Virus record (IMG/VR): IMGVR_UViG_3300031992_002114
Coordinates: 64,001-83,788 of that record
Length of the DNA: 19,788 nucleotides
Source: a virus
Taxonomy: Duplodnaviria > Heunggongvirae > Uroviricota > Caudoviricetes
Reading direction: 5' to 3' (one strand)
The position numbers were made by a program, and so were the translations under genes. Positions 537-19,774 of this stretch are shown piece after piece (position 1 is the stretch's first letter; every line of letters begins with the position of its first letter). The notes beneath the pieces are model-generated. The model made no database searches. It saw nothing but the letters and a program-made list of their open reading frames with translations, and had not been told where the DNA came from.

Positions 537-671
537 ATGAGTCAATTAGATGCACTTTATTCTCGTTATAATAAATTAAAAAATAATAGGCGAAATATCG
601 AGAGTCGAGGAGTATTAAGAAAAATTCAACGCAAAATCCGCAAATTAGAGAAAGAACAAAATAATGGATAA
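537..671 (+). CDS. small basic hypothetical protein (44 aa), not in ORF track
   Basis: [44 protein letters not shown]. Strong SD (AAAGGAG), directly after a promoter; the stop overlaps the thyX start region. Confidence 0.7.
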   Translation: MSQLDALYSRYNKLKNNRRNIESRGVLRKIQRKIRKLEKEQNNG

Positions 672-1272
672 GGTATCAATTATAGAAATTACTGAACATC
701 CAATTGAAATTATTTCAAAAGGAGCAGGAACTAGTTATAAAAAAATTAATAATTCATGACAAAGAGTTCAGACATGTATTAAAAATGGACATTTATCTGT
801 AACTGAATTTGCTCATATTAATTTCAAAATAGATGGAATTTCAAGAAGTTGTTTAGCACAACTTACTCGTCATCGTTTAATGTCTTTTTGTGTTGAATCT
901 CAGCGTTATGTTAAATATAATTTTGAAGATAATAATTGATATGTAATGCCAAAAATTTTTGAAAAATCTGATGCTTGAACTCAAAGATATATTCATGAAA
1001 TGAAAAATGCAGCTTTAAGTTATAGACAAGCTATAGAAGATGGCATTAGACCAGAAGATGCTAGGTTTTTCCTTCCAGAAGCTACTAAAACAAATTTAAC
1101 TTGCGGAATGAATCTTAGAGAATTTTTTAACTTTCTTAATTTAAGGCTTGATCCGCACGCACAATGAGAAATTAGAGAATTAGCAGAAGAAATGTTTAAT
1201 CAAGTATTAAATTATAATAATGAATGATATACGATCTTATCCTATTGGAGAGAAACCTGTTTCGATAAATAA
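664..1272 (+). CDS. thyX: FAD-dependent thymidylate synthase (202 aa under code 4; five in-frame TGA=Trp)
   Basis: Reading TGA as W gives H-LSVTEFA...[25 protein letters not shown]...PEDARFFLP...[18 protein letters not shown](W)EIRELA. This contains the RHRX7S ThyX motif and the HAQWEIR motif. TGA at 757, 937, 976, 1165 and 1225; TAA at 1270-1272. Confidence 0.95.
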
Positions 1273-1277
1273 TTTTT

Positions 1278-1307
1278 TTGTCAATTGTTTTAAAAATATA
1301 GTATAAT
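1278..1307 (+). promoter_or_regulatory. sigma70/sigmaA-type promoter
   Basis: TTGTCA (1278-1283), 18-nt spacer, TATAAT (1302-1307); SD AAAGGAG before ATG 1333. Confidence 0.7.
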
Positions 1308-1332
1308 ATTATAAAAGAAAGGAGCAAGAGTA

Positions 1333-1512
1333 ATGACTAGAAAGAAAAAACATTATAAACCAATACATGTTATGTCAAGTATAGAGCATACTCTTGCTCT
1401 AATGCCAAAATTTTATCCTGCTTCTCGTTGTGGGATAATTGGAGATACTTCTTATAATAGAAGAAAAGAGAAAAGAAATTTCCAAAGAGAACTTCGAGAT
1501 GAAGGATATTAA
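1333..1512 (+). CDS. small basic hypothetical protein (59 aa), not in ORF track
   Basis: MTRKKKHYKPIHVMSSIEHTLALMPKFYPASRCGIIGDTSYNRRKEKRNFQRELRDEGY*. SD AAAGGAG; the stop lies 1 nt before the next ATG (1514). Confidence 0.7.
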   Translation: MTRKKKHYKPIHVMSSIEHTLALMPKFYPASRCGIIGDTSYNRRKEKRNFQRELRDEGY

Positions 1513-1513
1513 A

Positions 1514-2080
1514 ATGATTACTCAATATTCTTTTGGATTGAATACTCATGCAAGTAAAAATAATAATGTAAAAGATATTTGGAAAACTTGGAGTTGTGAA
1601 GAAATTCGTGCAGATTTACAACCCAATAGAAGTGCAATGATTAATATTTGTCAAAATTTAACTTCTGATTTTAATAAAGGTACAATTATTAGAAGTCACA
1701 ATGCTTTTCTTGGTAAAAGTGTGTATATAGTAGGTAAAAGAAAGTATGATAAAAGAGGTGCTGTAGGTACTTATCATTTAGAAACAGTTTATCATGCAGA
1801 TACTTTTGAAGAAGTTTTTACCTTATTAAAATCTCAAGGATATTTAATCTTAGCTGTTGATAATATTGAAAAATATAATCCAATAGCATTGAATGAAATA
1901 AGACTTCCATATTCTACTGCATTTGTTTATGGAGAAGAAAATGCAGGACTAGATGAAAAAACTATTAAAATGTGTGATACTATGGTTTATATTAAAAATA
2001 TTGGAAGTGTGCGGTCAATGAATGTAGGATGTGCCGCAAGCTGTTGTATGTACGAATATTCAAAACAATGGAGGATATAA
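1514..2080 (+). CDS. SpoU/TrmH-family (SPOUT) RNA 2'-O-methyltransferase
   Basis: SPOUT motifs: 'DFNKGTIIRS' (N-x-G-x-x-x-R), 'YGEENAGL', and 'I...GSVRSMNVGCAAS'. Start moved from 1439 to ATG 1514, which follows the stop of the upstream 59-aa ORF. Confidence 0.85.
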   Translation: MITQYSFGLNTHASKNNNVKDIWKTWSCEEIRADLQPNRSAMINICQNLTSDFNKGTIIRSHNAFLGKSVYIVGKRKYDKRGAVGTYHLETVYHADTFEEVFTLLKSQGYLILAVDNIEKYNPIALNEIRLPYSTAFVYGEENAGLDEKTIKMCDTMVYIKNIGSVRSMNVGCAASCCMYEYSKQWRI

Positions 2081-2081
2081 A

Positions 2082-2816
2082 ATGAATCGAGCTAAGAATC
2101 CTATGACTTATTATTCTAGTGATTTTCATTTCGGACATAACAATCAATGGATTGATAATGATGGAATTCTACACAATCGAGGAATTATTACTTTTGAACG
2201 TCATCAATTTAAAACTATTAAAGAGCATGATGATTATCTTGTTCAACTAATTACAAATTGGTCTCAACGTTGGGCAAAAGGTTCTACTTTTTGGTTCCTT
2301 GGAGATTGGGGAAGTCTAGAATATCTTTGGGTTATTCAACTCTTAAAAGATAATGGAATTATTACTAAAATGATTCTTGGTAATCATGATTCTGTTTCTG
2401 ATATTCCAATTTTTAAACAATACTTTGATGAAGTTTATCAATATCCAGTATTTACTTCTCAAAAATTAGTTCTTTCTCATTTTCCTGTAGCTGTTTATCC
2501 AGACCAGATTAATGTATGCGGTCATTTACATGGAAGTAAACTAAAAGACGATAATCATGTTATAGCTTCTATTCATGTTGCTAATTATAATGCAATTTCT
2601 GACAAGAATCTTGCAACAACTTTTAGCAAACTTCCAAAATTTACTCGTCGTTTTCTTTACGAACCTTGGGCCGCAGATTATGTTTTTATTCAACCTAAAG
2701 AAGATGTAGTAATGGATAGAAATGGTAATATTGATCTTTCTGCATCTAGACTACTTCAAAGAATTAATAAAGAAAAAAGGGATAAGAATGATCCTTATCA
2801 ACCTTTTGTAGGATAA
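2082..2816 (+). CDS. calcineurin-like metallophosphoesterase
   Basis: Motifs SDFHFGH, LGD, LGNHD, LSHFP and CGHLH. Start moved to ATG 2082 (SD GGAGG upstream, 1 nt after the previous stop). Confidence 0.85.
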   Translation: MNRAKNPMTYYSSDFHFGHNNQWIDNDGILHNRGIITFERHQFKTIKEHDDYLVQLITNWSQRWAKGSTFWFLGDWGSLEYLWVIQLLKDNGIITKMILGNHDSVSDIPIFKQYFDEVYQYPVFTSQKLVLSHFPVAVYPDQINVCGHLHGSKLKDDNHVIASIHVANYNAISDKNLATTFSKLPKFTRRFLYEPWAADYVFIQPKEDVVMDRNGNIDLSASRLLQRINKEKRDKNDPYQPFVG

Positions 2817-2834
2817 TTTAAGAGGAGTTTTTTT

Positions 2835-3095
2835 ATGATTTATCAAATTGTAGCAAAAGAAAAACAAATTGAAAATGAGTGTGATACTTGTGCATTAGTT
2901 GTGCCTACTTATTTAGATGATTTTAATGAGAAAAAGGGATATAATTTTATTAATGAAGAGCGTTTTTCTACTGACGTAACAGATACAAAATTTCGTTATG
3001 TGTCTGATGATGACGTTGTACAATTAAAAATTGCAATTTCAGAATTTAATCAAACAATTGGAGAAGATGTAATTTCTCTTATTGAATTAATTTAA
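2835..3095 (+). CDS. hypothetical protein (86 aa)
   Basis: ORF with SD GAGGAG, operon-like packing, no recognised motif. Confidence 0.7.
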   Translation: MIYQIVAKEKQIENECDTCALVVPTYLDDFNEKKGYNFINEERFSTDVTDTKFRYVSDDDVVQLKIAISEFNQTIGEDVISLIELI

Positions 3096-3098
3096 TTT

Positions 3099-3128
3099 TT
3101 GACAGTCTCCCTTTTTCTATGATATAAT
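3099..3128 (+). promoter_or_regulatory. consensus sigma70/sigmaA promoter with extended -10, overlapped by a long palindrome
   Basis: TTGACA (3099-3104), 18-nt spacer, TGaTATAAT with TATAAT at 3123-3128; SD AAAGGAG before ATG 3160. Confidence 0.8.
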
Positions 3129-3159
3129 TATATTACAGAAAAGGAAAGGAGACTTAAAT

Positions 3160-3621
3160 ATGGAGTCCGACTTGAAGATTTTGCCACATGATATGCGTTT
3201 TTTTGAAATGGCAAAAACTGAAGCTGAAAAGGGAACTTTTCCTCGATTTAAAATAGGATGTGTTGTAGTATATCGAGGAAAAGTTATTTCTTCTGCTTTT
3301 AATACACAAAAGCCAGACCCTATACAAAAGAAATATAATTCTTATAGGAATTTTAATAATATAAACAATAAGGGTTGTATTAATCATTCTATTCATGCTG
3401 AAATTAGAGCACTAAAGCATATTTCTTATCCAATGTCTCAAAAAATAAATTGGTCTAAGGTTAAGATTTTTACTTATAGAATTAGTCCAGGCTTGCCTTA
3501 TGGACATGGAATGAGTCGTCCTTGTCCAGCTTGTATGCAGTTTATTATAAATCATGGCATTCGTCAAATTTATTATAGTACAGATATTGGATATGCAAAG
3601 GAGATAGTTGAAGGATGTTAG
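3160..3621 (+). CDS. Zn-dependent cytidine/dCMP-deaminase-fold protein
   Basis: HAE (IHAEIRAL) and PCxxC (RPCPAC) zinc-binding motifs; N-terminal 'KIGCVVVYRGKVISSAFN' typical of the deaminase superfamily. Substrate cannot be determined from the sequence alone. Confidence 0.85.
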   Translation: MESDLKILPHDMRFFEMAKTEAEKGTFPRFKIGCVVVYRGKVISSAFNTQKPDPIQKKYNSYRNFNNINNKGCINHSIHAEIRALKHISYPMSQKINWSKVKIFTYRISPGLPYGHGMSRPCPACMQFIINHGIRQIYYSTDIGYAKEIVEGC

Positions 3622-3890
3622 CTAGAATATACACTTCAAAAGAAATTCAAAATATATTAAAAAAGCATAATGATGAATTAAATACTTGTTATACTATTTG
3701 TTATAGACAAAATGAACCATATTTCCATTTACAAGAGTTTAGAGGTGGAAATTGGCAAAATAAGAAATTAACACAAGAAGAATCTAAAGAGTTATTACTT
3801 AAAGATTTCTTTTATCAGATTGTTCCTAAATATTGGCATCTTTATTGTGATAATGTATGCGGGCATTATATTTTAGTATGGGAAATGTAA
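3615..3890 (+). CDS. hypothetical protein (91 aa)
   Basis: ORF overlaps the deaminase stop by 7 nt, suggesting translational coupling. Confidence 0.65.
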   Translation: MLARIYTSKEIQNILKKHNDELNTCYTICYRQNEPYFHLQEFRGGNWQNKKLTQEESKELLLKDFFYQIVPKYWHLYCDNVCGHYILVWEM

Positions 3891-3903
3891 TATGCCTTAC
3901 AGT

Positions 3904-4260
3904 ATGAAACCAATAGTTGGAATAATTGGTAGTAGGTCAATTACAACTTTAAATTTAGATTTATTTATAGATAAAACTCATGTTGGAGAAATAGTTAGTG
4001 GTGGAGCTAATGGTGTAGATAAAATTGCAGAAAATTGAGCTAAAAGAAATAAAATTGAATTTATTGCAATGTTACCAAATTATGAATTATTAGGAAGTCA
4101 TTGAGCTCCATTAAAAAGGGATGAAGATATCGTAGATTATTGTGATTTAATTATTTGTTTTTGAGATACTAAATCTTCTGGTAGTAAATATACTATGGAT
4201 TATGCTTTAAAAACAGGTAAAAAAATTATTTTACATGAAATTATAGATAAGGAGAAATAA
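3904..4260 (+). CDS. SLOG-superfamily protein (DUF2493/YspA-like), 118 aa under code 4; three in-frame TGA=Trp; not in ORF track
   Basis: MKPIVGIIGSRS...EIVSGGANGVDKIAEN(W)AKRN...SH(W)APLKRD...DLIICF(W)DTKSSGSKYTMDYA. Contains the IIGSR, VSGGAxGxD and FWDxxSxG patterns of this family. TGA at 4036, 4102 and 4162. In-frame ATG 3892 is an alternative start. Confidence 0.85.
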
Positions 4261-4262
4261 TT

Positions 4263-4454
4263 ATGCTTTTTGGAAATGCTATGGAATGTGCTCTTCTAAA
4301 AGTTGGACTTATTGACCATAAACGCAAATCTCGTATTCCTAAAATTCACACTTTTCCTTGCTATAAATGTCAAGGAATTCTAGAAACTATTCCTTATACT
4401 AATGTAGCAGCTTGTCAAAATGAAAAGTGTAATAACAGGATTATTTTTAATTAG
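4263..4454 (+). CDS. small putative Zn-ribbon protein (63 aa)
   Basis: CYKC...CQNEKC cysteine pairs; SD AAGGAG. Confidence 0.65.
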   Translation: MLFGNAMECALLKVGLIDHKRKSRIPKIHTFPCYKCQGILETIPYTNVAACQNEKCNNRIIFN

Positions 4455-4460
4455 TTTTTA

Positions 4461-4703
4461 AACAGACCGTTAAAGTCGTTATGCAAAAGCTAGACTTAGT
4501 CTTGGTCAGACTCTTAGTTAATCAACTATACAGAGATTAATTAATGTTTGCTGCGGAAGGTAGAAAAGTTTAATTGTATAGAATTTAAAATAAGCCGCAT
4601 AAAAACTTTTCTCGAAGGAAATTTCTTTTAAAGGTTTTTGAATAACATGCGCAGTTGGATAATAAATAAAAAAACCTTTTTCAATCTATTTTAATGAAAG
4701 GTT
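4461..4703 (+). ncRNA. candidate structured RNA / cis-regulatory leader (unassigned family)
   Basis: Longest non-coding gap in the window, with several helices found by eye (4526-4533/4574-4581, 4562-4571/4603-4612, 4630-4639/4670-4679). No recognisable RNA family. Confidence 0.4.
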
Positions 4704-4706
4704 AAA

Positions 4707-4895
4707 ATGTACGAAGAATATTATGATGAGTTTGAAGAATTTGATTCTTTTAAAAAAATTTCTCATCAAGTTCCAAAAGGTTTTAAAGAAAATAAACGTT
4801 ATAAATCAAACCAAGATAAATATAAGGCTCGTCGCAAGGCAAAAACCCGAGAGAAAAAAAGAATGATAGAAAATCAACAATCTTTTTATGAATAG
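4707..4895 (+). CDS. small protein with acidic N-terminus and Lys/Arg-rich C-terminus (62 aa)
   Basis: ORF track; SD GAAAGG; contains KARRKAKTREKKR. Confidence 0.7.
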   Translation: MYEEYYDEFEEFDSFKKISHQVPKGFKENKRYKSNQDKYKARRKAKTREKKRMIENQQSFYE

Positions 4896-4903
4896 AGGTT
4901 GTT

Positions 4904-5692
4904 ATGGAAAGTAGTATTAAAAAAAGAGTAAGTCAGCATTTGCGGGAAGCCATAGATAAAGATGCTGTAACAGAAAAAGGTTGGTTTATTATAGCTCCAT
5001 ATGGCTCTATGAATTATGGCTTATATGATTATGATAGTGATGTAGATAGTAAAATTATTAAAGTTCCTAATATGCGGGAAATCATAAGAAATATAGGTTC
5101 ACGTGGAAGCTTGACCCGCACACTTAATTTTAATAATGAAAAAATAGAAGTTAAAGATATAAGAGAATTTTCTCGTATTCTTAAAACAGGTTCTATTAAT
5201 TTTATGGAAATTTTATTTTCAGACTATGTTCAAGTAAATTCTTTATATGAAGAAGAGTGGAATTTACTTTGTAGTAGAAGAGAAGCCTTAGCCCGCGCAT
5301 ATCCTGAAAATACACTATCTTCTTCTCTTGGAATGGCTAAAACAAAATATCATAATTTAGAGAAACAAGATTATAATAATTGTAATTTAAAAGATTTTAT
5401 GACTCTTATGAGATTAGAATTTTTTGTAAAAAATTATCTTGAAAAAGTTCCTTATAAAAAATGTATTACTGTTGAAGATTTACCAAAAGTTCAAGAATTA
5501 TGGCTAAAATTTAAACATCAAAAAACAATAAGTGCTGAGGGTTTTAATCGTATTTTATCAGAAGCTCAATTAATTGTTTCTAAAATAGCAAATATGATAG
5601 AAAATAGTGATATGACAACTGATTATTCTATGGATAATTTTATATATGATATTAATAATAAATTAATTTTAAAGAGAATTAAGGAGACTTAA
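4904..5692 (+). CDS. DNA-polymerase-beta-superfamily nucleotidyltransferase (phage RlaP/YcgL-like)
   Basis: 'YGSMNYGL...DSDVDS' fits the GS-x-x-YG...SDxD nucleotidyltransferase motif, followed by a helical C-terminal region. Confidence 0.75.
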   Translation: MESSIKKRVSQHLREAIDKDAVTEKGWFIIAPYGSMNYGLYDYDSDVDSKIIKVPNMREIIRNIGSRGSLTRTLNFNNEKIEVKDIREFSRILKTGSINFMEILFSDYVQVNSLYEEEWNLLCSRREALARAYPENTLSSSLGMAKTKYHNLEKQDYNNCNLKDFMTLMRLEFFVKNYLEKVPYKKCITVEDLPKVQELWLKFKHQKTISAEGFNRILSEAQLIVSKIANMIENSDMTTDYSMDNFIYDINNKLILKRIKET

Positions 5693-6133
5693 GTGAAAAA
5701 TCAAATTCTAAAAGATTTTTGGGATGCAGAAAATGGAATTTGTGAACTAGTTGTACTAAATAAATGGGGAAAATTTTCCGCTAAAACAATTTGTTCAAAA
5801 GAAGATAAAGATGTTCTTAGTTATTGGACTGGAATTCATCTTTGTGAATATAAAATTTTAATTAAAACTCTTCAAGCAAAAGCTTTAGCATTTGATCAGC
5901 GAGTTATTGGTATCAAACATGCTATTAATGTTTTACAAAATATTGATTCTCAAGCTAAATGGTGTGCAAAAACAAATGGAGATAGCTATTTTAATCTTTG
6001 GTGCTGTGTAGAAGCTACTGAACTAGAAGCTAAAAAAATTCGTGCTAAAATCAAAGAACTTAAAGAAGGTTATCCTGTTTATGCAGAGCATTTAATTAAT
6101 TCTAAGAGAGAAATCTCAAATAAAAATTATTAA
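5693..6133 (+). CDS. hypothetical protein (146 aa), GTG start
   Basis: SD AAGGAG; starts immediately after the previous stop; no recognised motif. Confidence 0.7.
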   Translation: MKNQILKDFWDAENGICELVVLNKWGKFSAKTICSKEDKDVLSYWTGIHLCEYKILIKTLQAKALAFDQRVIGIKHAINVLQNIDSQAKWCAKTNGDSYFNLWCCVEATELEAKKIRAKIKELKEGYPVYAEHLINSKREISNKNY

Positions 6134-6146
6134 AAAGGAGTTTGAA

Positions 6147-6917
6147 ATGAGTGGTCGTATTTTTGTAGTAGCTGATATTCATGGTTCTGCGGCCGTAGTT
6201 AAAAATATTATTTCTTTAATTGGTAATCCAACATCAGATGATATTATTATTGTTGCTGGAGATGCTGGTTTTGAGTATGGTAAACATGTTATGGGTTCTG
6301 CAAAAAGGGCTGCTCATAAATTTGTTGGTAAATGGATTGTTATGAGGGGTAATCATGACAATTGTTATCAAGACAATCATGCTCATTGGAATAAAGAAAA
6401 ACAAAATTATGATTTAGATACTGGATGGTCTTGGGCAGAAGATGGATATTCTTTATATCAAAATAGATATCCTAATATTTTATATATTCCTGATAGTGGA
6501 GGAATTTTAAAAATTAAAGATTTTAATTTTCTCTTTTGTCCAGGAGCTTATTCTGTAGATAAGATGTATCGTTTAAGAATGGATTATCCTTATAATTCTA
6601 ATGAACAACTATCTATAGAAGATATGAATAAACTAATTGATATTGTTAAAGACTGGAATAAAAATGGTTTCGATATTGATTATGTAATTGGACATACTTT
6701 CCCACTTTATTTAGAACGTTATTATCGTGATTTATTTATGTCTAGTATTTCTCAAACTTCCGTAGATAAAACTACAGAAAAGTGGTTAAATATTATTAGT
6801 GAAGAATATGAAAGAAATCCCGCTTTCAAACAATATTATGGTGGACATTTTCATGATTCTCGCATTCTAGATGATAAATATACTATGGTTTATCAAACTC
6901 CAATTCAAATTGTTTAA
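6147..6917 (+). CDS. calcineurin-like metallophosphoesterase
   Basis: Motifs ADIHG, AGD, RGNHD, IGHT and GGHFH; SD AAAGGAG. Confidence 0.88.
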   Translation: MSGRIFVVADIHGSAAVVKNIISLIGNPTSDDIIIVAGDAGFEYGKHVMGSAKRAAHKFVGKWIVMRGNHDNCYQDNHAHWNKEKQNYDLDTGWSWAEDGYSLYQNRYPNILYIPDSGGILKIKDFNFLFCPGAYSVDKMYRLRMDYPYNSNEQLSIEDMNKLIDIVKDWNKNGFDIDYVIGHTFPLYLERYYRDLFMSSISQTSVDKTTEKWLNIISEEYERNPAFKQYYGGHFHDSRILDDKYTMVYQTPIQIV

Positions 6918-7027: not shown

Positions 7028-8938
7028 TTGAATAATTTTTATAAAAATGACTCAATTGAATCACTTACTCCACGAGAGCATGTTAGACTTCGTCCAGGAA
7101 TGTATGCGGGAGATACTAGTGATGCAACACAACTTGCAATAGAAATCTTAGGAAATTCTATTGATGAATTTAATATTGGTCATGGAGATTTAATCGAAAT
7201 TTATATAAATCCAGATTGGATTGATGAACAGAATGTTATTCTAATTCGTGATCATGGTCAGGGATTCCCAATAAATGTTCAACGAGATGATGGAGAAACA
7301 GTTCTTCAAGCTTCTTTTGATGTTATTAATACTTCTGGTAAATATCGTGATGATGGTGTGTATGAAGGAACAGCAATTGGTTTAAATGGAATTGGAGCAA
7401 AATTAACTAATTTTCTTTCTCATAAGTTAAATGTAGTTTCTTATGATAATGAAGGTAATTTTGAATCTATCTTTTTTACAGAAGGAATTTTTGAAAAAAG
7501 AGAAACAGGAAAATTAATTCATGCTTCTGGCACAGAAGTAGCTTTTATTCCTAGTGAAGAATTCTTTACTTCACCTATGGTAAATGAGAAGAAATTAAGA
7601 GATTTTTGTGAAGATATTACTTGTTTATGTGAAGGTCTTACTATTATTTTTAATAATGAGACTATTAAGCATGAAAATGGTATTCAAGATTTATTAATTA
7701 AACATCTTGGTAAAGAAATTGAAATCCTTAATAATCCATTATTTATCCAAGAGAGAAAGAACAAACAAGCTATTTCATTAGGATTAACTTATACAAGTAA
7801 AGGTTCTTCTACTATTATTCCTTATGTTAATTGTGGATTAACATCATCTGGCCCGCATATTACAGCTATTAAATCAACAATTACACGTGTTTTAAATAAA
7901 TGGGCAAAAGAACAAGGAATATTAAAAGCTAAAGATAAAAATTTAGACGGTTCTTCTCTTCAAGAAGGATTGATTTTAGTTGCTAATATTACAGCAGAAA
8001 ATGTAGCTTATAATGCTCAAATTAAATCTACAATTACTAAAATTGATACTAGTTTTATAAATACTATCCTTGCGGAGCAGCTTGAAATTTGGCTTGATAA
8101 TAATGTTGAAGATGGCACTAAAATTATTGAAAAAGCTCTTATAGCTCGTAAAGCCGCAGAAGCTGCTAAGAAAGCTAGAGAACAAGTCAAAAATAAAGCA
8201 AATAAATCTGAAAAAAAGAAAAATATTCAGTTACCTACAACTTTAACAGATTGTTGGAGTAAAGATAGAACAAAATGTGAATTATTAATTTGCGAGGGTA
8301 AGTCAGCTGCATCTGGATTAGTAGCAGCTAGAGACAGCGAAACACAAGCAGTTTATGGTGTTAGAGGAAAAATGTTAAGTGTTTTAAAAACAGCTCCCGC
8401 AAATATTTATAAAAACAAAGAAATTAATAATTTAGTTCAAGCTCTTGGATTGGCTGTTAATCCTGCTAATTGTAAATTAACATATGATGCATCTAAACTT
8501 CGTTATGGAAAGATTATAGCTTGTGCGGATGCAGATCCAGATGGGTCAGCTATTGAAAATTTACTTTTTAATATTTTATGGTATATATGCCCAGAATTAA
8601 TAACTAATGGTCATGTTTATTCGGCAGTACCACCTCTTTATAAGGTAATTACCAATAAGAATGAGTATATTTATCTTAAAGGTGATAAAGAATTAAAAGA
8701 ATGCCAACAAGTTTGTACTATTAAAACGATAAATCGTTTAAAGGGACTTGGCGAAATGGATTCAACAGAACTTAATGAAACTCTATTAGATCCTGCTACA
8801 AGACAAGTTTTACAACTCGAAGTAAAAGATTTTAAAGAAACTGATAAAATTTTTACAGATCTTTATGGTAAAGTAGTTGAACCAAGAATTAAATTCTTAC
8901 AAGAGCATGGAGAGGAAGCGAGAGCTGATTATGAATAG
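7028..8938 (+). CDS. gyrB: type IIA topoisomerase B subunit (GyrB/ParE-like), TTG start
   Basis: HVRLRPGMY, GHKL motifs (EILGNSIDE, DHGQGFP, GLNGIGAK), TOPRIM CEGKSA / RGK / DADPDG, and KGLGEM. Gyrase versus topoisomerase IV is not resolved. Confidence 0.92.
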   Translation: MNNFYKNDSIESLTPREHVRLRPGMYAGDTSDATQLAIEILGNSIDEFNIGHGDLIEIYINPDWIDEQNVILIRDHGQGFPINVQRDDGETVLQASFDVINTSGKYRDDGVYEGTAIGLNGIGAKLTNFLSHKLNVVSYDNEGNFESIFFTEGIFEKRETGKLIHASGTEVAFIPSEEFFTSPMVNEKKLRDFCEDITCLCEGLTIIFNNETIKHENGIQDLLIKHLGKEIEILNNPLFIQERKNKQAISLGLTYTSKGSSTIIPYVNCGLTSSGPHITAIKSTITRVLNKWAKEQGILKAKDKNLDGSSLQEGLILVANITAENVAYNAQIKSTITKIDTSFINTILAEQLEIWLDNNVEDGTKIIEKALIARKAAEAAKKAREQVKNKANKSEKKKNIQLPTTLTDCWSKDRTKCELLICEGKSAASGLVAARDSETQAVYGVRGKMLSVLKTAPANIYKNKEINNLVQALGLAVNPANCKLTYDASKLRYGKIIACADADPDGSAIENLLFNILWYICPELITNGHVYSAVPPLYKVITNKNEYIYLKGDKELKECQQVCTIKTINRLKGLGEMDSTELNETLLDPATRQVLQLEVKDFKETDKIFTDLYGKVVEPRIKFLQEHGEEARADYE

Positions 8939-11030
8939 TATTAATGTTATTTCAGAGATTTCTCAAAACTTTCTTGACTCATCTCTTGAAACGAATATGA
9001 ATAGAGCTTTTCCAAATATTCTTGATGGATTGAAACCTGGTCAACGCGCTTGTATTTGGGAAATGTATATAAAGAAGTATACAAGTAAAAAACCTCATGT
9101 AAAATCTGCTAAGGTAAGTGGCGGTGTTATTGCTGATTTATGGCCACATTCCGACGTAGCTATTTATGAAACTTTTGCTCGTATGTCTCAACCATTTATT
9201 AATAATATTCCTGAAATTGATTGGCATGGAGCAAATGGTAATCCTATTCTTGGTGGAGATGCTTTAGCAAATCAACGTTATACTGAATGTCGTTTAGCAG
9301 CTATTACAGAAGATGGCATGCTTCAAGGAATTAATAAAAATAATGTAGATATGATTCCTAACTTCAGTGAAGATGCTAAATGGCCTAAAGTACTACCATC
9401 AATTTTTCCTCGCCTTCTTGTTAATGGAGCACAAGGAATTGGAGTATCGCTATCAAATACTTGGCTTTGTCATAATTTTACTGAAACAGCTCAATTAATT
9501 TTTGATTATATCCGCACAGGAATTGTAGATAATGATAATTATTATCCTGATTTTCCAACAGGTGGAATTATTATAAACAAAGAAGATTTACCTAAAATTA
9601 ATAAAACTGGTAAAGGTAAAGTTATTATTGAAAGTAAATATACTATTAATGGGAATGAAATTAATTTTTCAGAACTTCCTTATCAAGTATATATTGAACC
9701 AGTAATTGATGAAATTAAAAAAGGAATCCAAGAGGATAAGATTACTGGAATTCAAGAGATCTATAATAAATCTGATAAAAATAGAATTCTTTTAACTATT
9801 GAGTGTGAAAATAATTGCAACCCAGAACAAGTAGTTCTTCAATTATTTGAAAATACTAATCTTCGTAAACAATATAATGCTAATCAAAATGGTATTATTA
9901 GTAAAACTCCAATTATGATTACTCTTGAGCAATATCTTCAAGAATATGTTAAACATAATCTTAATTGTATTAAAAGAGAATTTCAATATGATTTAGATGA
10001 AACAAATGAAAAAAAAGAAATTCTTGAGGGACTAGTTAAAGCTTTAGAAGATATTGATAATATTATTCAAACAATTAAACAAAGTAAAAATACTTCAGAA
10101 GCAAAAATTAATTTAATTAATAAATTTAATTTTACAGAATTACAAGCAGATGCAATTCTTAAAATGAGACTTAGTAAATTAGCAAATATGGAAAAAATTG
10201 CTATTAATAATGAGCTCCAAGAGAAAAAGGAATTTGCATTATATTGTGCGGGAATTGTTGAATCAATAGATAAACAAAAAGAAATTCTAGTTAATAGATT
10301 AGAAGAACTTGTTAAAAAATATGGAGACAAGCGCCGCACACAAATAATTCAAAAAGAAATTGCTTCTAAAGATAAAAAGAAAAAAGAAAAAATTGTTAAA
10401 GATGTAGTTATTACTTACGATGAAAAAGGTTATTTACAAAATATTCCTATTTCTGCATATAAGAAAACTGGAACTAAAGTAAATGTTCTTAAAATGAAGT
10501 CAAATGAATTATTTTTACTTTTCTCTTCTCTTGGACGAATTTTTAAAGTAAGAGCAGAAGAGGTTAAAGAATGCGGGAATCGAGATAAAGGTCAAGCAGT
10601 TGGAACTATTTTAAACCTTGCTTCGCAAGAAAAGATTCTAAATATTTTTAATATGGGAATAGATAAAAAACATCCTTATATTATTTTCTTTACTAAATAT
10701 GGTTTAGTAAAAAAGAGTGATAAAAATATTTGGACTACAACAACTCAAAATAAAAAGGGAATGAAAGGAATTTCTCTTAAAGAAAATGATTCTATTGTAG
10801 GAGTCTTTGAAAGTAATGGAGATTTAGCGGTTGTTAAAAGTAAAACTCATATTATTAAATTTGAAGTAGAATCTATTAGAGCTACTAAAAACGGATATGG
10901 AGTAAAAGCTATTTCTCTTGATGAGGATGAGATAGTAGAAAAAGTAGAAATTATTCCTAAAAATTCTATTAAATATAATAATATTAAAATTCAAAATCGT
11001 GGCGGTAGAGGAGTTCTTATTCATGTCTAG
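8931..11030 (+). CDS. gyrA: type IIA topoisomerase A subunit (GyrA/ParC-like) with shortened C-terminal domain
   Basis: DGLKPGQR, PHSD, catalytic-Tyr motif ANQRYTECRL, FPRLLVNGAQGIGV, PDFPTGG. Likely start is ATG 8931, overlapping the B-subunit stop. Confidence 0.92.
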   Translation: MNSINVISEISQNFLDSSLETNMNRAFPNILDGLKPGQRACIWEMYIKKYTSKKPHVKSAKVSGGVIADLWPHSDVAIYETFARMSQPFINNIPEIDWHGANGNPILGGDALANQRYTECRLAAITEDGMLQGINKNNVDMIPNFSEDAKWPKVLPSIFPRLLVNGAQGIGVSLSNTWLCHNFTETAQLIFDYIRTGIVDNDNYYPDFPTGGIIINKEDLPKINKTGKGKVIIESKYTINGNEINFSELPYQVYIEPVIDEIKKGIQEDKITGIQEIYNKSDKNRILLTIECENNCNPEQVVLQLFENTNLRKQYNANQNGIISKTPIMITLEQYLQEYVKHNLNCIKREFQYDLDETNEKKEILEGLVKALEDIDNIIQTIKQSKNTSEAKINLINKFNFTELQADAILKMRLSKLANMEKIAINNELQEKKEFALYCAGIVESIDKQKEILVNRLEELVKKYGDKRRTQIIQKEIASKDKKKKEKIVKDVVITYDEKGYLQNIPISAYKKTGTKVNVLKMKSNELFLLFSSLGRIFKVRAEEVKECGNRDKGQAVGTILNLASQEKILNIFNMGIDKKHPYIIFFTKYGLVKKSDKNIWTTTTQNKKGMKGISLKENDSIVGVFESNGDLAVVKSKTHIIKFEVESIRATKNGYGVKAISLDEDEIVEKVEIIPKNSIKYNNIKIQNRGGRGVLIHV

Positions 11031-12165
11031 TTTATATCCAGAATCTTGGCAAATTCCACCTATGAAATATTGCTCTAAAGCATCTGATAAAGCCGCAAGA
11101 CAAGCTTTTGAATCAGGTGACTTTGTTATGCAAGAAAAATATGATGGAGCTTTATATCAATTAGAGAAAACTGATTCTGGATATATTTATTTATTTTCTA
11201 GAACAAAATCTCGTAAAACAGGAGAGCTTGTAGAAAAGTCTGATAACTTTCCTCATATTAAGAAATGGGCTGAATGGGCTATCCCAAATGGAACTATTCT
11301 CATAGGTGAAATTTATGTAGAAGGTGGACATTCTAACGATGTAACTAAATTATCTGGATGTTTACCTCAGAATGCAGTTAAACGTCAGTTTGATTCAAAT
11401 GAATATGGTGGTCCTGTAAAATATAAAGTATTTGATATTATTAGATTTGCAGGAGAAGATATTCAAAATAAACCAACTATTGAAAGAATTAATAATTATT
11501 TAAATAGTACTAGTTTAGACTATTCTTTTTCTGATAAGTATGTACAAAGAGTAACTACTTATTATGATAATTTTGAAGAACGACTTCAACAAATTTTTAA
11601 AAATGGTGGAGAAGGTGCTGTTTTTAAAAACAAAAATTGCCCTTATCGCGCGGGAAAACGTTCAACTGTATCTCAAGCTTTTAAATGGAAGCAACATTTA
11701 GATTCTGTTGATTTAATTTGTATTGGACTTGAAGATCCAATCATAGAATATACTGGTAAAGAAATTAATACTTGGCCATATTGGTATAGTTTTACAACTG
11801 ATCATTTTTATAAATGGGAATTTGATAAAAATAATCCCACATCGGCTCCATATAGCTTTGATGATGTTCCTGATATAGAACCGGTAACTAAGCCATTTTT
11901 TTACGGATGGAAAAATTCTATGTCTCTTGGATGTTATAAGAATGGAGAAATTGTTTATGTCGGTAAGGTAGCATCGGGATTAACTGATAGTATGCGGCAA
12001 GATATGGCAGAGCATCCAAAAAATTATCTTAATAGAGTTATTCAGGTAAGTTGTATGTCTGTAGATCCTAAAGAAGGAACATTGAGACATCCAGTATTTG
12101 AACAGATACGTGAAGATAAAAATCCAGAAGATTGTATTTATAAAGAAATTTTCAATGTTAAGTAA
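11023..12165 (+). CDS. ATP-dependent DNA ligase
   Basis: Motif I KYDG, III GEI, IIIa FDI, IV EGAVFK, V KWK, and OB-fold end LRHP. Start moved to ATG 11023 (SD GAGGAG). Confidence 0.9.
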   Translation: MSSLYPESWQIPPMKYCSKASDKAARQAFESGDFVMQEKYDGALYQLEKTDSGYIYLFSRTKSRKTGELVEKSDNFPHIKKWAEWAIPNGTILIGEIYVEGGHSNDVTKLSGCLPQNAVKRQFDSNEYGGPVKYKVFDIIRFAGEDIQNKPTIERINNYLNSTSLDYSFSDKYVQRVTTYYDNFEERLQQIFKNGGEGAVFKNKNCPYRAGKRSTVSQAFKWKQHLDSVDLICIGLEDPIIEYTGKEINTWPYWYSFTTDHFYKWEFDKNNPTSAPYSFDDVPDIEPVTKPFFYGWKNSMSLGCYKNGEIVYVGKVASGLTDSMRQDMAEHPKNYLNRVIQVSCMSVDPKEGTLRHPVFEQIREDKNPEDCIYKEIFNVK

Positions 12166-13927: not shown

Positions 13928-14926
13928 ATGGCTGTTGATATTTTTGGAATTACTCCTCACAAAGTTAGTCGAGATCTTAAGGGATATACGGTGCTATTTT
14001 ATGGAGCACCAAAGACAGGTAAGACAACTATTGCATCTCAATTTGATAAAGCTCTATTATTAGCTTTTGAGGTTGGTTATTTAGCTCTTCCTGGTGTTAT
14101 GGCACAACCTATTAATTATTGGTCAGATTTTAAACAAGTACTTCGTCAGTTAAAAGAAGATCAAGCTCATGAAATGTTTTCAAATATTATTATAGATACG
14201 GCAGATATTGCTTATGATCTTTGTGAAAAGTTTATTTGTAGTCAAAATAGTGTCAGTTCAATAGGTGATATGCCTTATGGCGCTGGTTATGCAAAAGTTT
14301 CTAAGGAATTTGATGAAGCTTTACGACAAATTCCGCAAATGGGATATGGATTAATTATTATTTCTCATTCTCAAGATAAAGTTTTTAAAGATGAAAATGG
14401 GAAAGAATTTAATCAAATTGTTCCAACTCTTGGAACTCGTCCTCGTTTAATTGTAGATAGGATGTCAGATATTATCGGTTTTGCTCATCCTGAATTAGAT
14501 GAAGAAGGTAATACTAGAACAGCTCTTTATCTACGTGGTACTCCTAGATTTATTGCTGGTAGTCGTTTTAAATATATTAAACCAGTAATTGAATTTACTT
14601 ATGATAATCTTGTAGACGCTATTCATGAAGCTATTGATAAAGAAGCAGAAGAACATGAAGGAAAACTTGTTGTTGATTCTGCTGAAAGAGTTACAGTAGA
14701 AGAAATTGATTATGATGCTTGTATTGAAAAATTTAATCAATTAGTAAATAAACTTCAAGAAGTTAGTGGAGCTGAATTTGGTAATCGTTGGGCTGGTAAA
14801 ATTATTGAACTAACTGACAAGTATCTTGGTAAAGGTAAAAAGATTACAGAAACAACTTCAGAACAAGCAGAACAAGTATATTTAATTGTTACTGATCTTG
14901 AAGATGAAATGAAGAAATATCTATAA
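13928..14926 (+). CDS. AAA-type P-loop NTPase, Sak4-like recombinase
   Basis: Walker A YGAPKTGKTT, Walker B IIIDT, 'IISH' motif; adjacent to the SSB-like gene. Confidence 0.75.
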   Translation: MAVDIFGITPHKVSRDLKGYTVLFYGAPKTGKTTIASQFDKALLLAFEVGYLALPGVMAQPINYWSDFKQVLRQLKEDQAHEMFSNIIIDTADIAYDLCEKFICSQNSVSSIGDMPYGAGYAKVSKEFDEALRQIPQMGYGLIIISHSQDKVFKDENGKEFNQIVPTLGTRPRLIVDRMSDIIGFAHPELDEEGNTRTALYLRGTPRFIAGSRFKYIKPVIEFTYDNLVDAIHEAIDKEAEEHEGKLVVDSAERVTVEEIDYDACIEKFNQLVNKLQEVSGAEFGNRWAGKIIELTDKYLGKGKKITETTSEQAEQVYLIVTDLEDEMKKYL

Positions 14927-14938
14927 AGTTTAAAATAG

Positions 14939-14980
14939 AAAGGATAGGAAAATAAAATAGATTTTTCCTATCCTTTTTTT
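14939..14980 (+). terminator. Rho-independent terminator
   Basis: AAAGGATAGGAAAA (14939-14952) / TTTTCCTATCCTTT (14963-14976) perfect 14-bp stem; T run continues to 14980. Confidence 0.8.
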
Positions 14981-14997
14981 AATATAAAAGGAATTTT

Positions 14998-15369
14998 ATG
15001 AATAGACGTCAACTGTTAGATAAAATTAGAACTCATTATCTTAAAGATTATTATAATTATAATAAAGTAAGTTCTCAACTAAAAAGATATGAAGAACAAG
15101 GATTTAATTATGATACTATAAACGATATCTTACATTATTGGTATGATATTAAAAAAGAAAAACCTGAAAAATCTAATGGTGGAATTGCTATTATTGAATA
15201 TATTTTAGTAGAGTATAATAATTGGAAAAAAAGCCAAGAGGAACAAGAAGAAACAATAAAGTTAATTAAACAAAACATTAATAAGTTAAATTATAAAGAA
15301 AAAGAATACACCGTTAATCCAACTCCAATTAAAAGACCTCTGCATTTAAAATTATTTAATTTAGAATAA
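14998..15369 (+). CDS. hypothetical protein upstream of the helicase (123 aa)
   Basis: ORF track; SD AAAGGA. Position suggests a replication accessory role, but no motif was recognised. Confidence 0.7.
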   Translation: MNRRQLLDKIRTHYLKDYYNYNKVSSQLKRYEEQGFNYDTINDILHYWYDIKKEKPEKSNGGIAIIEYILVEYNNWKKSQEEQEETIKLIKQNINKLNYKEKEYTVNPTPIKRPLHLKLFNLE

Positions 15370-15372
15370 GAG

Positions 15373-16929
15373 GTGTTTTTATTGAATAAGAATCAAATTA
15401 ATAGTTTATATGATAGCGCTTCTGCGCTTCAAATTTTAGGATGTACAATGAAACATCCAAATTTAATTATTAATAGTGATGGTAAATATACTTTTACAGA
15501 AGATGATTTTGTTCCTGAAATTCATAAAATTGCATTTGGAGCTTTATATAATTTAGCAATTATGGGAACAACAAATATTACAGTTCAAGTAGTTTATGAT
15601 TATTTATCTGATAGACCTAAATCATTAGGGGTCTTTCAAGCAAGTAATGGAGAAGAGCTTCTTACTAGAGCTAAAGAAGCAGCTGATTTTGCAGCTTTTG
15701 ATTTTTATTATAATCGTTTAAAAAAATATTCACTTCTTAGAGGATATGCACGTGCGGGAGTTGACGTATCAGAATATTATAATTTTAACAATATTCTTAA
15801 TATGAAAGAAAAGCAAGAAGAACAAGAAAGATTTGATTCTTTAACTTTAACTGAATTAGCTGATGAAATTGATAGTTCTATCATGCGAGTTAGAGACGTA
15901 TATGTTGATAATAGTTTAGAAGAATCTTATACAATTGGAGATAATCTTTTTGAACTTGTAGAATCTTTAAAAGAAACTCCTGAAATGGGACTTCCCTTAT
16001 ATGGTGACATTTGCAATACAATTACTAGAGGAGCAAGACTTGGTTGTCTATATCTTCGTTCAGCAGCAACAGGAGTGGGTAAAAGTCGTAGTCTTTTAGC
16101 AGATTCTTGTTATATGGCTTGCTCAGAAATTTATAATAATTCGACGCAACAATGGGAAAATCACGGTAGCCCGCAACCTTCTTTATTTATTTCTACAGAA
16201 TTAGAATTAAGAGAACTTCAAACTATGGCTTTGGCATTTATATCTGGTATTCCTGAAAATAGAATTTTAGATGGAGAATTACATTTTGATGAAGAAGATA
16301 GATTGAAAAAAGCTATAGGATTATTACAAAATGCTCCACTTTATATTGAATTATTACCTAATTTTTCTGTAAAAGATATTGAAAATTGTATTAAAAGAAA
16401 TTTAAGAATAAACAGAGTGCAATATATTTTCTTTGATTACTTATCTACTTCTCTTGGAATTCTTGAAGAAGTTGGACGTAGAACTCGCGGAGTTGCAATG
16501 CGAGAAGATAGTATTTTATTTTTAATATCAACTAAACTTAAAGAAATAGCAGTTCAATTCAATGTTTTTATTATGACAGCGACTCAACTTAATATGGATT
16601 GGAAAACCGATCCGTTACCTGACCAAAATTTATTAAGAGGAGCAAAATCCATCGCAGATAAAACAGATTTTGGTAGTATTCTATTAAATTCAACAGAAAA
16701 AGATGAACAAATGTTAGCTCCTATCATTCAAGAATTAGGATGTTCTATGCCTAATGTAAAATTAAGTGTATATAAAAATCGTAGAGGTTCAATTGTTCAA
16801 TCTTATATTTGAATGGTAGCCGATAAATCAACTTGTAGATTTAATCCAATTTTTGTAACTGATTGGTGGTATAAACCAATAGAAGTAGAAAAAACTAAAA
16901 TTAAAGTAGTATTACCTTGGGAAGATTAA
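15373..16929 (+). CDS. dnaB: DnaB-like replicative helicase; extends through in-frame TGA 16810 (=Trp) to TAA 16927-16929
   Basis: Walker A SAATGVGKS, Walker B IFFDY, TATQLN, GAKSIADKTD and KNRRG. After TGA the frame continues (W)MVADKSTCRFNPIFVTDWWYKPIEVEKTKIKVVLPWED* and ends 1 nt before the primase ATG. The true start may be TTG 15382 (SD GAGGTG). Confidence 0.9.
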
Positions 16930-16930
16930 T

Positions 16931-18001
16931 ATGGCTTTTTATGATAAAGATGAAGTTAAAAATGCCTTAGATATAGAAGATGTATTTGATATTTTAGAAT
17001 CATTAAATGCTGAGCCAGACTTGCGGGAAGATTATATTATAGCTATTACAGTTTGTCATGGTGGAGATAGTCATAAATTATATTATTATGATAATACTAA
17101 ACTTTTTAAATGTTTTACTCATTGCGGAACAATGGATATCTTTGAATTATTAATGAAGATTAAACAAATAGATTTAAATACTGCTGTATCTTATGTTGTT
17201 AATTTCTTTAATTTGGGTTGGAAAATTAAAAATAAAGATAATATTGATAATTTTTTAGACTGGAGAATATTAGATAAATATGAATATATAACTAATATTA
17301 AAATTAATAATCAAAAAGCAGTTTTTCCAGAAATTGATTCTAAAATTTTACAACATTTCCCGCAACCTAGAATATTAAATTGGGAACAAGAACATATACC
17401 AAAAGAAATAAGTGATTATATGGACATTCATTATAATCCTTTAACCGGAGGTATCCTTATTCCGCATACGGATGAAAATAATAGATTAATTGGTATTAGA
17501 GAAAGAACTTTAGTTCAAGAAAATGAGAAATATGGTAAATATCGTCCAGCAAGAATTAATGGCAATATGTATAACCATGCTCTTGGATTTAATTTATATG
17601 GTTTCTATCAAGCTAAGGAAAATATTAAAAATACTCAAATTGCTTTAATTTTAGAAGCTGAAAAAAGTGTTCTTCAAGCAATTAATTATTTAGGAATAGC
17701 AAATAATATAGCTGTTGCAGTTTGCGGATCAACCTTATCTTCATATCAATTGCAAATGCTATTGGACATAGGAGTAAAAGAAATTGCAATAGGTTTTGAT
17801 GCTGATTATCAAAAAATTGGAGATAAAGAATATGAAGAAACTATAAAAAAATTTGAAAAAATATATAATAAATATTGTGGATATGTTAATATAAGTTTTT
17901 TATTTGATATAAATGGTGATTTATTAGAATATAAAAATTCTCCAACAGACAAAGGAAAAGATGTATTTTTTCAATTATGGAGAAATAGAGTATTCTTATA
18001 A
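16931..18001 (+). CDS. dnaG: DnaG-like primase (Zn-binding + TOPRIM domains)
   Basis: CH...C..HC zinc-binding motif (VCHGGDS...FKCFTHCG), GIRER, TOPRIM LEAEKS and GFDAD. Confidence 0.85.
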   Translation: MAFYDKDEVKNALDIEDVFDILESLNAEPDLREDYIIAITVCHGGDSHKLYYYDNTKLFKCFTHCGTMDIFELLMKIKQIDLNTAVSYVVNFFNLGWKIKNKDNIDNFLDWRILDKYEYITNIKINNQKAVFPEIDSKILQHFPQPRILNWEQEHIPKEISDYMDIHYNPLTGGILIPHTDENNRLIGIRERTLVQENEKYGKYRPARINGNMYNHALGFNLYGFYQAKENIKNTQIALILEAEKSVLQAINYLGIANNIAVAVCGSTLSSYQLQMLLDIGVKEIAIGFDADYQKIGDKEYEETIKKFEKIYNKYCGYVNISFLFDINGDLLEYKNSPTDKGKDVFFQLWRNRVFL

Positions 18002-18016
18002 AAGGAGGTTTTTAAA

Positions 18017-19774
18017 ATAAATATTAAAGAATATAATAGTCCAAATCCTTTATATACTCCAATTCAACAAGTTCTTTATAACAGAGGTATCCCAATAGAA
18101 GAACAAGAAAAATGGTTAAATGCTGATTGAAGATATATTAATGATTGAAGAGCTTTTGGAGAAGAAAGGGTGCGGGAAGCAGCGTCAATTATTTATAAAG
18201 CTCTTAAAAATAATGAACGTATTTCAACAGTAGTTGATCCAGACGTTGATGGATTTACATCGGCCGCAATTATGATTAATTTTATTAATAATTATTTTCC
18301 AAAATATGTTAATGAAAATTTTTACTATGTGCTTCATTCTGGTAAACAACATGGTTTAGCTGATATTGATTTACAAGATATTGTTGATAGAGGTACTAGT
18401 ATAATGTGGATTGGTGATGCTGCTAGTAATGATTATGAACAACATAAGTTTTTAGTAGATAACGGTATAGATGTAATTATTACAGACCATCACGAATGTG
18501 ACGAATATAGTCCATATGCAATTACTATTAATAATCAAATGTGTGATTATCCAAATAAAAGTTTAAGCGGTGTTGGTGTTACTTGGCAACTTTGTAGAGC
18601 AATTGAAGAGATTTATCAATTAGGTGATTATACTTCTAAAATGGTTGATTTAGTTGCTTTAGGTGTTTTATCAGATATGATGGATTATCGGCAGATAGAA
18701 GTTAGAGCTTTAGTAAATCTTGGTTTAAATGCAATTACCAATCCTTTTTTCCGTGGAATGACTATTAAGAATAAATACTCTATTGATAAAATGAATGGTA
18801 TTAATTATTTTTCAACTGCTTTTTATGTAACTCCTTATATTAATGCAATCTGTAGAAGTGGAACTCTAGCAGAAAAAGAAATTGTTTTTAAAGCTATGTG
18901 TATTCCATATGCTTTTCAAAAAATATTAACAACTAAAAGAGGTCATAAAGGTGAAACTGTTGCTTTATATGAAGAAGCTATTTTAATTGCAGATAGAGTA
19001 AAAAGACGTCAAACAAAATTACAAGATGCTTCAATGGCTTTGTTAAAAAATAAAATTGAAAAAGAGCAACTTCTTAATAATTCAGTAATAGTTCTTTTAT
19101 GCAACCCTGGTGATGTAGAGCCAAACATTGCTGGATTATGTGCAAATAAAATTCAAGCAGAATATCAACGTCCAACTCTTATCTTAATTAAAACACATCA
19201 GTTTAAAGATAAAGAAGATATTTATAGAGGCTCTGCCCGCAATTATAGTCAATGTGAAATTGAAGATTTTCGTAAAGTATGCGAAGATACTGGTGAAACA
19301 AGTTTAGCACAAGGCCATCAAGGAGCTTTCGGTTGCTGGATTCCCGAATCTAATTTAGATAATTTTATTTCAAAAACAAATGAATATTATAAAAATCTAG
19401 ATATGTCTCCTACCTATTGGGTTGATTATAATTGGAATAGTAATCAAATTGATTCTAAAATACTTTTAGATTTAGCAGATTTAAATATTTTTGGTCAAGA
19501 AATACCAGAAGTATTTGTTGCAATAAAAGATGTTTCTTTATCAGAATCTAATGTTACTTTAATGAGTCCTGATAAACATCCAACAATTAAGATACAAATA
19601 GGAGATGTTTCTATTATCAAATTTAAATCAAGTCAAGAAGAATATGAGAGTTTTATCCAACCAAATACTAAAATTACTTTAATAGGTAAGCCTGCTAAAA
19701 ATGAATGGATGGGGAGCGTATCCGCTCAGATTTTAATTGATAATTATGAATTAAAAACAGAATGGGTATTTTAA
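18017..19774 (+). CDS. recJ: RecJ-like DHH-family ssDNA exonuclease; N-terminus extended through two TGA=Trp, probable ATA start
   Basis: DHH motifs DPDVDG, TDHH, LGVLSD; DHHA1 motifs GSAR and GHQGAFG. The upstream frame contains the RecJ-type 'VLYNRGI' segment, TGA at 18128 and 18146, and SD AAAGGAGGT (18001-18009) 7 nt before ATA 18017. Confidence 0.88.

Follow-up and report, generated by a model that had tools for sequence, protein, structure and literature searches.

Gene-selective use of TGA as a tryptophan codon in an uncultured tailed phage with its own tRNA(UCA)

Phages that read TGA as tryptophan (Trp), carry suppressor tRNAs, infect standard-code hosts and have close standard-code relatives were described by Borges et al. 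(10.1101/2021.08.26.457843). The 'Agate' genomes of that study, 127-154 kb in size and from cattle and other animals, have recoded modules spread across the genome (10.1101/2021.08.26.457843). The same authors describe the replication machinery as 'variable' in its use of the alternative code, with the replication genes of Lak phages being mostly recoded (10.1101/2021.08.26.457843). The proposed Phassvirus group around phage phAss-1 (Int J Mol Sci 2023, PMC10607447) comprises genomes of 130-145 kb with many tRNAs, including suppressor tRNAs but no dedicated synthetase, and a Clostridia-type host is predicted. The recoded open reading frames (ORFs) of phAss-1 comprise virion genes and several DNA-processing enzymes, in a pattern that varies between close relatives (PMC10607447). 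Here, we analyze in-frame TGA codons in the IMG/VR record IMGVR_UViG_3300031992_002114 (hereafter G000), a single linear contig of 83,788 bp with a GC content of 30.7% and a CheckV completeness of 58%, which puts the full genome at probably about 140 kb. Our starting point was the terminal 19.8 kb of this contig (G000:C1:64001-83788; 19,788 nt), here called the window, which constitutes the module for replication and nucleotide metabolism in an uncultured, large lytic tailed phage.

Codon alignments show that TGA is read as Trp in the lineage of G000. Based on combined interpretation of codon meaning, tRNA gene content and gene-by-gene codon use, we consider it likely that TGA has been partially reassigned to Trp, with decoding by a phage-encoded tRNA(UCA) in a standard-code Gram-positive host and with TGG being kept in early genes.

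TGA as a tryptophan codon

The 11 TGA codons listed in the first-pass annotation of the window are all in frame and lie in thyX, the SLOG gene, the helicase gene and the RecJ-like gene, which are broken or truncated under translation table 11 and whole under table 4. Our gene set for the window consists of 24 models with 6,213 codons, and Pfam domain matches agree with the identities given earlier to thyX, SLOG, helicase, primase and the RecJ-like gene (Table 1). The models contain 11 in-frame TGA and 71 TGG codons and zero in-frame TAA or TAG, and their two off-frames hold hundreds each of TGA, TAA, and TAG. Switching from code 11 to code 4 increases the coding density of the window from 88.3% to 93.8%. 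A comparison of codes by ORF coverage was crude and noisy and was not relied on, because this AT-rich DNA gains coverage also when TAA is read as sense. Reading through the helicase TGA restores tight gene packing as proposed, with a single nucleotide then left between the TAA stop (16927-16929) and the primase ATG (16931). The statement that no window gene ends in TGA also stands, with a different tally of the other stops, i.e., 18 TAA and 6 TAG for our 24 models versus 20 and 6 for 26 models before. About 13-15% of ORFs of at least 100 amino acids (aa) end in TGA in the standard-code relatives G003 and G004. Outside the window, a few G000 genes have TGA 2-7 codons ahead of TAA or TAG.

Interrupted frames under table 11 could also mean that the four genes are pseudogenes, or that the TGAs are assembly or sequencing errors, a reading to which we give virtually no credence. 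Apart from TGA, nothing interrupts these frames, and homology to relatives continues beyond each TGA. Assemblies made independently from other metagenomes (L001, L002, L003, L018, L028-L031) have the same TGAs, and the reading as decay or error is in practice refuted.

The meaning of TGA was tested at the level of codons, not of residues alone, against standard-code relatives and near relatives. In thyX, TGA makes up five of the six Trp codons (757, 937, 976, 1165, 1225). Columns W92, W168, and W188 hold Trp in 34, 35, and 36 of 36 homologs, respectively, and are TGG in L062-L065, relatives that translate by table 11; W32 and W105 are variable columns. The homolog consensus around W168 (n=37) reads PHAQWEIRELA and contains the HAQ-W-EIR motif noted in the first-pass annotation. 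The thyX TGAs are identical in relatives at 91-99% identity, those at W92 and W168 are present even in recoded relatives at 56%, and W188 is TGA in one and TGG in the other of two near-identical contigs. A contig at NCBI carries thyX at 84% identity to the window gene. ThyX sequences in the PDB match down to E 6e-15 and have D (Mycobacterium tuberculosis) or K (Helicobacter pylori) at the position of W168; they are too distant for judging this column. In the SLOG gene all three Trp codons are TGA (4036, 4102, 4162). Position 49 is Trp in 19 and position 91 in 20 of 22 homologs, position 71 is W or Y, and the table-11 relative L066 has TGG at both 49 and 91.

The replication genes give the same picture. 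The helicase TGA (16810) is codon 480 of 518. Among the 27 related viral loci found, all 22 relatives at about 46-55% identity have TGG at this codon, TGA being limited to four loci at 93-100% identity, and the alignments run on to residue 517. The RecJ-like gene has its two TGAs at 18128 (codon 38) and 18146 (codon 44), where 13 and 15 relatives, respectively, have TGG. Codon 38 is TGG already in L003 at 88% identity, and conversely codon 564, TGG in the window, is TGA in L002 (93%). Two primase sites that are TGG in the window likewise carry TGA in relatives, namely W350 in L002 and L033 (97%) and W111 in L003 (89%). The earlier proposal that several TGAs occupy family Trp positions is thus borne out by homolog alignment for 8 of the 11 window sites, at which Trp is conserved and relatives have TGG. 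Positions 32 and 105 of thyX and 71 of SLOG are not strictly conserved Trp columns.

Comparison across the genome was made with a recoded near relative (G002) and two standard-code relatives, one complete at 145 kb (G004) and one of 134 kb with terminal repeats (G003). TGA codons of G000 align to TGG in 20 of 29 cases in G004 and in 17 of 27 cases in G003; as a control, TGG codons of G000 align to TGG in 48 of 89 and 36 of 77 cases, respectively. The rest of the codons facing TGA in G003 and G004 are mostly tyrosine or phenylalanine codons, and none is a serine, glycine or cysteine codon. Against G002 we counted 95 TGA=TGA pairs, 9 changes from TGA to TGG and 14 from TGG to TGA, and only 6 of 110 aligned TGA codons pair with any codon other than these two. 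The TGA=TGA pairs and the swaps with TGG make TGA synonymous with TGG in this lineage. In G003 and G004 the terminase gene is free of in-frame TGA, and tRNA(UCA) is lacking. Full-length, table-4 versions of these proteins are already present in the public protein database.

Decoding of TGA as another residue, i.e., serine via a long-armed tRNA, glycine as in code 25, selenocysteine or cysteine, or low-level read-through by the host, might be argued from the three less conserved sites. We regard such decoding as extremely improbable, as the aligned codons are overwhelmingly TGG, followed by those for tyrosine or phenylalanine, with zero serine codons of either the TCN or the AGY type, and as TGA and TGG interchange like synonymous codons among phages at 88-97% identity. 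Rare natural read-through would, we infer, be unable to pass five TGAs in the 202-codon thyX. The further argument for a residue other than Trp comes from the suppressor tRNA itself.

Suppressor tRNA, uneven use of TGA and the host

No tRNA gene was found in the window itself. A search of the genome for a tRNA with UCA anticodon, as proposed in the first-pass annotation, detected one within an array of 25 phage tRNA genes, about 9.8 kb upstream of the window (Table 1), and tRNA(UCA) is encoded also by G001 and G002. The G000 tRNA(UCA) is 96 nt long, has an Rfam tRNA score of 56 bits and combines A1-U72, discriminator G73 and an encoded CCA end, which are likewise found in the tRNA-Trp(CCA) of the same array. 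A1-U72 and G73 are identity marks of bacterial tRNA-Trp. The long extra arm consists of a 5-bp stem and a 7-nt loop, GTCCAAA, which displays CCA and closely resembles the CTCCAAA of the Trp anticodon loop. The otherwise quite divergent tRNA(UCA) of G002 has a different, 6-bp extra-arm stem and an identical GTCCAAA loop.

Seryl-tRNA synthetase recognises long variable arms. The arm of the G000 tRNA could therefore suit this enzyme, and ARAGORN under code 11 labels the tRNA 'SeC' because of it. Both serine and selenocysteine identity were rejected, however, on the TGG alignments, A1-U72 together with G73, and an arm that is a look-alike of an anticodon loop and not of the serine type. The identity marks and the Trp-anticodon-like loop instead make charging with Trp plausible, presumably by the tryptophanyl-tRNA synthetase (TrpRS) of the host. 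The array further contains a full-length ROOL RNA.

An editing route to UGA decoding by the SpoU-family methylase and the deaminase encoded between thyX and SLOG was considered and found unnecessary, because a dedicated tRNA(UCA) exists and the deaminase fits the ordinary pathway to deoxythymidine monophosphate (dTMP). The deaminase scores as deoxycytidine monophosphate (dCMP) deaminase, sits in one module with thyX and fits the route from dCMP via deoxyuridine monophosphate to dTMP. SpoU_methylase is encoded two to three genes downstream of thyX also in L062-L064; this neighbourhood is thus conserved. The domains of release factors RF1/RF2 (PF00472) and of class Ib synthetases (PF00579) were not found in G000 or five related records, which is no evidence of absence because the recoded records are about 60% complete.

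Use of TGA differs strongly between genes. The genome has 101 TGA and 173 TGG Trp codons, and their distribution over 47 genes is bimodal (chi2 = 158, 46 degrees of freedom, p = 3e-14), with 26 of 47 genes using a single Trp codon versus 6.9 expected. TGA is carried by 17% of the window genes and by 48% of the genome ORFs of at least 100 aa. About half of the genes avoid TGA, and many long TGA-free genes have 5-12 TGG. Of the 24 window models 20 are TGA-free, including those for the ligase, the two subunits of topoisomerase II, the primase and a Sak4-like ATPase, and 3 of the 11 window TGAs are in core replication genes, the other 8 being in thyX and SLOG. RNA ligase, a Ro60-like protein and phosphatases are also encoded by TGA-free genes, and phosphoesterases and a nucleotidyltransferase are among the other window products. 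The preference is kept in G002: genes TGA-free in G000 show 74 TGG=TGG pairs versus 4 changes in this relative, in which the homologs of the topoisomerase II subunits and the ligase have only TGG. The heavily TGA-coded genes outside the window encode packaging, tail and surface functions, among others (Table 1).

Table 1 Features of the window and of the remaining G000 contig. TGA/TGG, numbers of in-frame TGA and TGG codons
Feature	Position	Strand	Size, match or context	TGA/TGG
thyX (flavin-dependent thymidylate synthase)	window 664..1272	+	202 aa; Pfam Thy1 PF02511, E 8.7e-51, 172.9 bits, model positions 2-185 of 191	5/1
SpoU-family methylase	window 1439-2080		PF00588, E 2e-21; between thyX and SLOG	TGA-free
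dCMP/cytidine deaminase	window 3160-3621		PF00383, E 2e-13; between thyX and SLOG	TGA-free
SLOG/DprA-like gene	window 3892..4260	+	122 aa; PF02481 and PF10686	3/0
Topoisomerase II B and A subunits and ATP-dependent DNA ligase	window 7028..12165	+		0/19
DnaB-like replicative helicase	window 15373..16929	+	518 aa; DnaB_C, E 3e-17	1/5
DnaG-type primase	window 16931..18001	+	356 aa; weak CHC2 zinc-finger match	0/4
RecJ-like DHH exonuclease	window 18017..19774	+	585 aa; DHH, DHHA1, RecJ_OB	2/8
Terminase				5/1
HNH/homing-endonuclease gene	genome 3830-4267		adjoins terminase
Portal				3/1
Sigma-factor-like gene	genome 7442-8527	-	PHROG 5767, E 5.5e-27; adjoins packaging genes	6/1
Class C sortase	genome 34648-35451			3/0
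Reverse transcriptase	within genome 45800-51847		PF00078; PHROG 1423	5/2
Tail fibre			1,230 aa	8/0
tRNA array	genome 53.0-60.7 kb		25 tRNA genes
tRNA(UCA)	genome 54115-54210		96 nt
tRNA-Trp(CCA)	genome 57800-57873
ROOL RNA	genome 58141-58788 (L054:5342-5989)		Rfam RF03087, 297.6 bits; inside the tRNA array
Cna-B/SpaA pilin	genome 60616-62622		LPXTG anchor	4/3

In the sigma-factor-like gene all six TGAs are within the C-terminal third; if this factor drives late transcription, its translation would need the suppressor tRNA. The reverse transcriptase gene is located just upstream of the tail-fibre gene (both within genome 45800-51847) and both are heavily TGA-coded, a layout that suggests a diversity-generating retroelement. 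In relatives, the match to the large terminase is broken up into two or three pieces that lie apart (G002:C1:15294-19194, G003:C1:119022-121910) and a homing-endonuclease-type gene adjoins that of G000, which suggests that the terminase of this clade holds intron or intein-type insertions.

The first-pass annotation had left two options for read-through, a host that uses code 4 or suppression supplied by the phage. The second is supported by the phage's own tRNA(UCA), and we take the most likely host to be a Gram-positive bacterium of the Bacillota that has a wall and uses the standard code. The sortase and the LPXTG-anchored pilin need a peptidoglycan wall, which points to a walled host, and the known code-4 Bacillota are wall-less. 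The phages in which relatives of helicase and portal occur have Bacillus, Enterococcus, Staphylococcus, Lactococcus, and Clostridioides as hosts. It is unusual for a phage to encode a pilus or surface-display system, which here also gives a useful clue to the host.

A Mollicutes-like host with which the phage shares code 4 would agree with the reading of TGA as Trp, the AT-rich genome, the zero TGA stops in the window and the lack of matches to release factor or TrpRS 'code-change' genes in the six records searched. Such a host is nonetheless very unlikely given the bimodal use of TGA, the sortase with LPXTG pilin and the relatives in the clade, complete ones among them, that are on the standard code. 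Complete avoidance of TGA by long genes with 5-12 TGG would be senseless if the host reads TGA, and the phage encodes tRNA(UCA) beside a tRNA-Trp(CCA). Under code 4, TGA would be the Trp codon in nearly all genes; TGG outnumbers it in the window by 71 to 11. TGA-carrying genes make up 26-71% in recoded phages of standard-code hosts and about 90% where the host shares the code (10.1101/2021.08.26.457843). The 48% of ORFs with TGA in G000 falls in the former range and fits a standard-code host, not the class of about 90%, and the share of window genes is lower still.

Possible order of decoding during infection

Under partial reassignment with a phage suppressor tRNA, early genes would first be translated on the standard code of the host. 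The phage tRNA(UCA) would next be made and charged with Trp, and TGA-containing cistrons would then become translatable. Genes needed before the suppressor accumulates would retain TGG, while AT pressure would let Trp codons drift to TGA in later-translated genes such as those for terminase, portal, tail fibre, sigma-like factor, thyX, and SLOG. Control would be translational and act cistron by cistron, because thyX and SLOG are in tight operons with TGA-free neighbours; SLOG has such neighbours on both sides, at gaps of 1-2 nt. The single TGA of the helicase and the two of the RecJ-like gene would represent recent cases, specific to the lineage, in which this drift has leaked into genes of the TGG type. 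Other sporadic TGA sites in G002 and L003 comprise primase W350 and W111, RecJ W564, and, in genes without TGA in G000, four more. Together, the sporadic TGAs in helicase, RecJ-like and primase genes look like near-neutral leakage, which suggests that the suppressor is already available when the replication genes are translated. The need of thyX for DNA synthesis, combined with its almost fully TGA-coded sequence, further implies a suppressor active by the time of replication, if replication is early. To this extent the first-pass view that suppression acts early, or during replication, would be a reasonable one.

Some points weigh against partial reassignment of this kind. The split into early and late genes is not clean, given the TGA-coded thyX. 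That the tRNA, odd and long-armed as it is, accepts Trp is deduced from codon alignments and identity marks, and RF1 and TrpRS genes were not found in the 58%-complete contig. As for the probable host, the nearest named sortase homologs, from Clostridia and Corynebacterium, are just 35-38% identical.

TGA might alternatively act as a switch on single genes in otherwise standard-code operons, by which thyX and SLOG are delayed and helicase and RecJ-like proteins are made first in short and then in full-length form; we rate this as rather unlikely. It is in accordance with the TGA content of thyX and SLOG (8 of 9 Trp codons), which is kept in relatives at 91-99% identity and, for thyX, partly at 56%. 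If true, supply of dTMP would be timed to a later phase, after the suppressor tRNA has accumulated, and the TGAs at helicase codon 480 of 518 and RecJ-like codons 38 and 44 would yield short products as long as suppression is absent and full-length ones thereafter. Shorter helicase and RecJ-like products in cells without suppression are conceivable from the gene structure. The N-terminal extension of the RecJ-like protein that includes both TGAs contains no ATG, GTG or TTG, and its frame opens right after the primase stop. The gene probably starts at a non-canonical codon of the ATA/ATT type, ATA 18017, which is preceded by a strong AAGGAGG at 8 nt; this position is ATT in L003 and ATG, GTG or TTG in more distant relatives. 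An in-frame GTG at 18170 (codon 52), with GGAG 8 nt upstream, is downstream of both TGAs and could serve as start of a shorter RecJ-like product. We nevertheless favor partial reassignment with drift of Trp codons to TGA in later-translated genes.

Comparison with described recoded systems

The first-pass annotation had singled out TGA in core replication genes as unusual. This view did not hold, as such genes contain just 3 of the 11 TGAs, 20 of 24 window models are TGA-free and there are published precedents. G000 resembles the Agate-type phages in TGA at Trp positions, a phage tRNA(UCA), partial recoding of multiple modules that is heaviest in structural genes, low GC content, an estimated genome size of about 140 kb, standard-code close relatives and variable use of the code in replication genes. 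Size (83.8 kb at 58% completeness), low GC content, TGA code and a rumen-type ROOL RNA would also fit a place of G000 in the Agate clade itself. Unlike in the account of Agate, thyX and SLOG are among the most strongly TGA-coded genes of G000.

The portals of G000 and phAss-1 (OQ749652; PMC10607447) share 40% identity, yet the phAss-1 group recodes TAG to glutamine with a tRNA(CUA) and the G000 lineage TGA to Trp. RecJ genes of relatives at 36-38% identity (L034, L036, L048) contain in-frame TAG, and lineages at about 50% identity (L007, L011, L097, L098) have TGA at other Trp sites. The wider clade thus seems to have recoded stops more than once, both TAG and TGA, and with its standard, TAG-recoded and TGA-recoded members is a good group for studying the speed of phage code change. 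G000 and its relatives need table 4, as thyX, SLOG, terminase, portal, tail fibre, and other proteins are otherwise lost or truncated.

With Mycoplasma and Spiroplasma (code 4) and their phages, G000 shares TGA as Trp and a tRNA(UCA). Their code applies to the whole cell, however, with TGA being the predominant Trp codon in practically every gene, whereas in G000 two thirds of Trp codons are TGG, about half of the genes are TGA-free and wall-dependent proteins are encoded. TGA-recoded crAss-like phages also use TGA for Trp, mainly in late genes, and have phage suppressor tRNAs (Yutin et al. 2021, PMC7886860), but represent an unrelated order with Bacteroidota hosts, and no crAss-type genes were among the G000 genes annotated. 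On its own, G000 answers no open question; it adds one case of gene-selective stop recoding, in a large phage of probable Gram-positive hosts, to the reading of TGA as Trp that is already well documented for gut and rumen phages. The more unusual element is its suppressor tRNA, whose spare, CCA-displaying extra arm is a feature not described in Borges et al.

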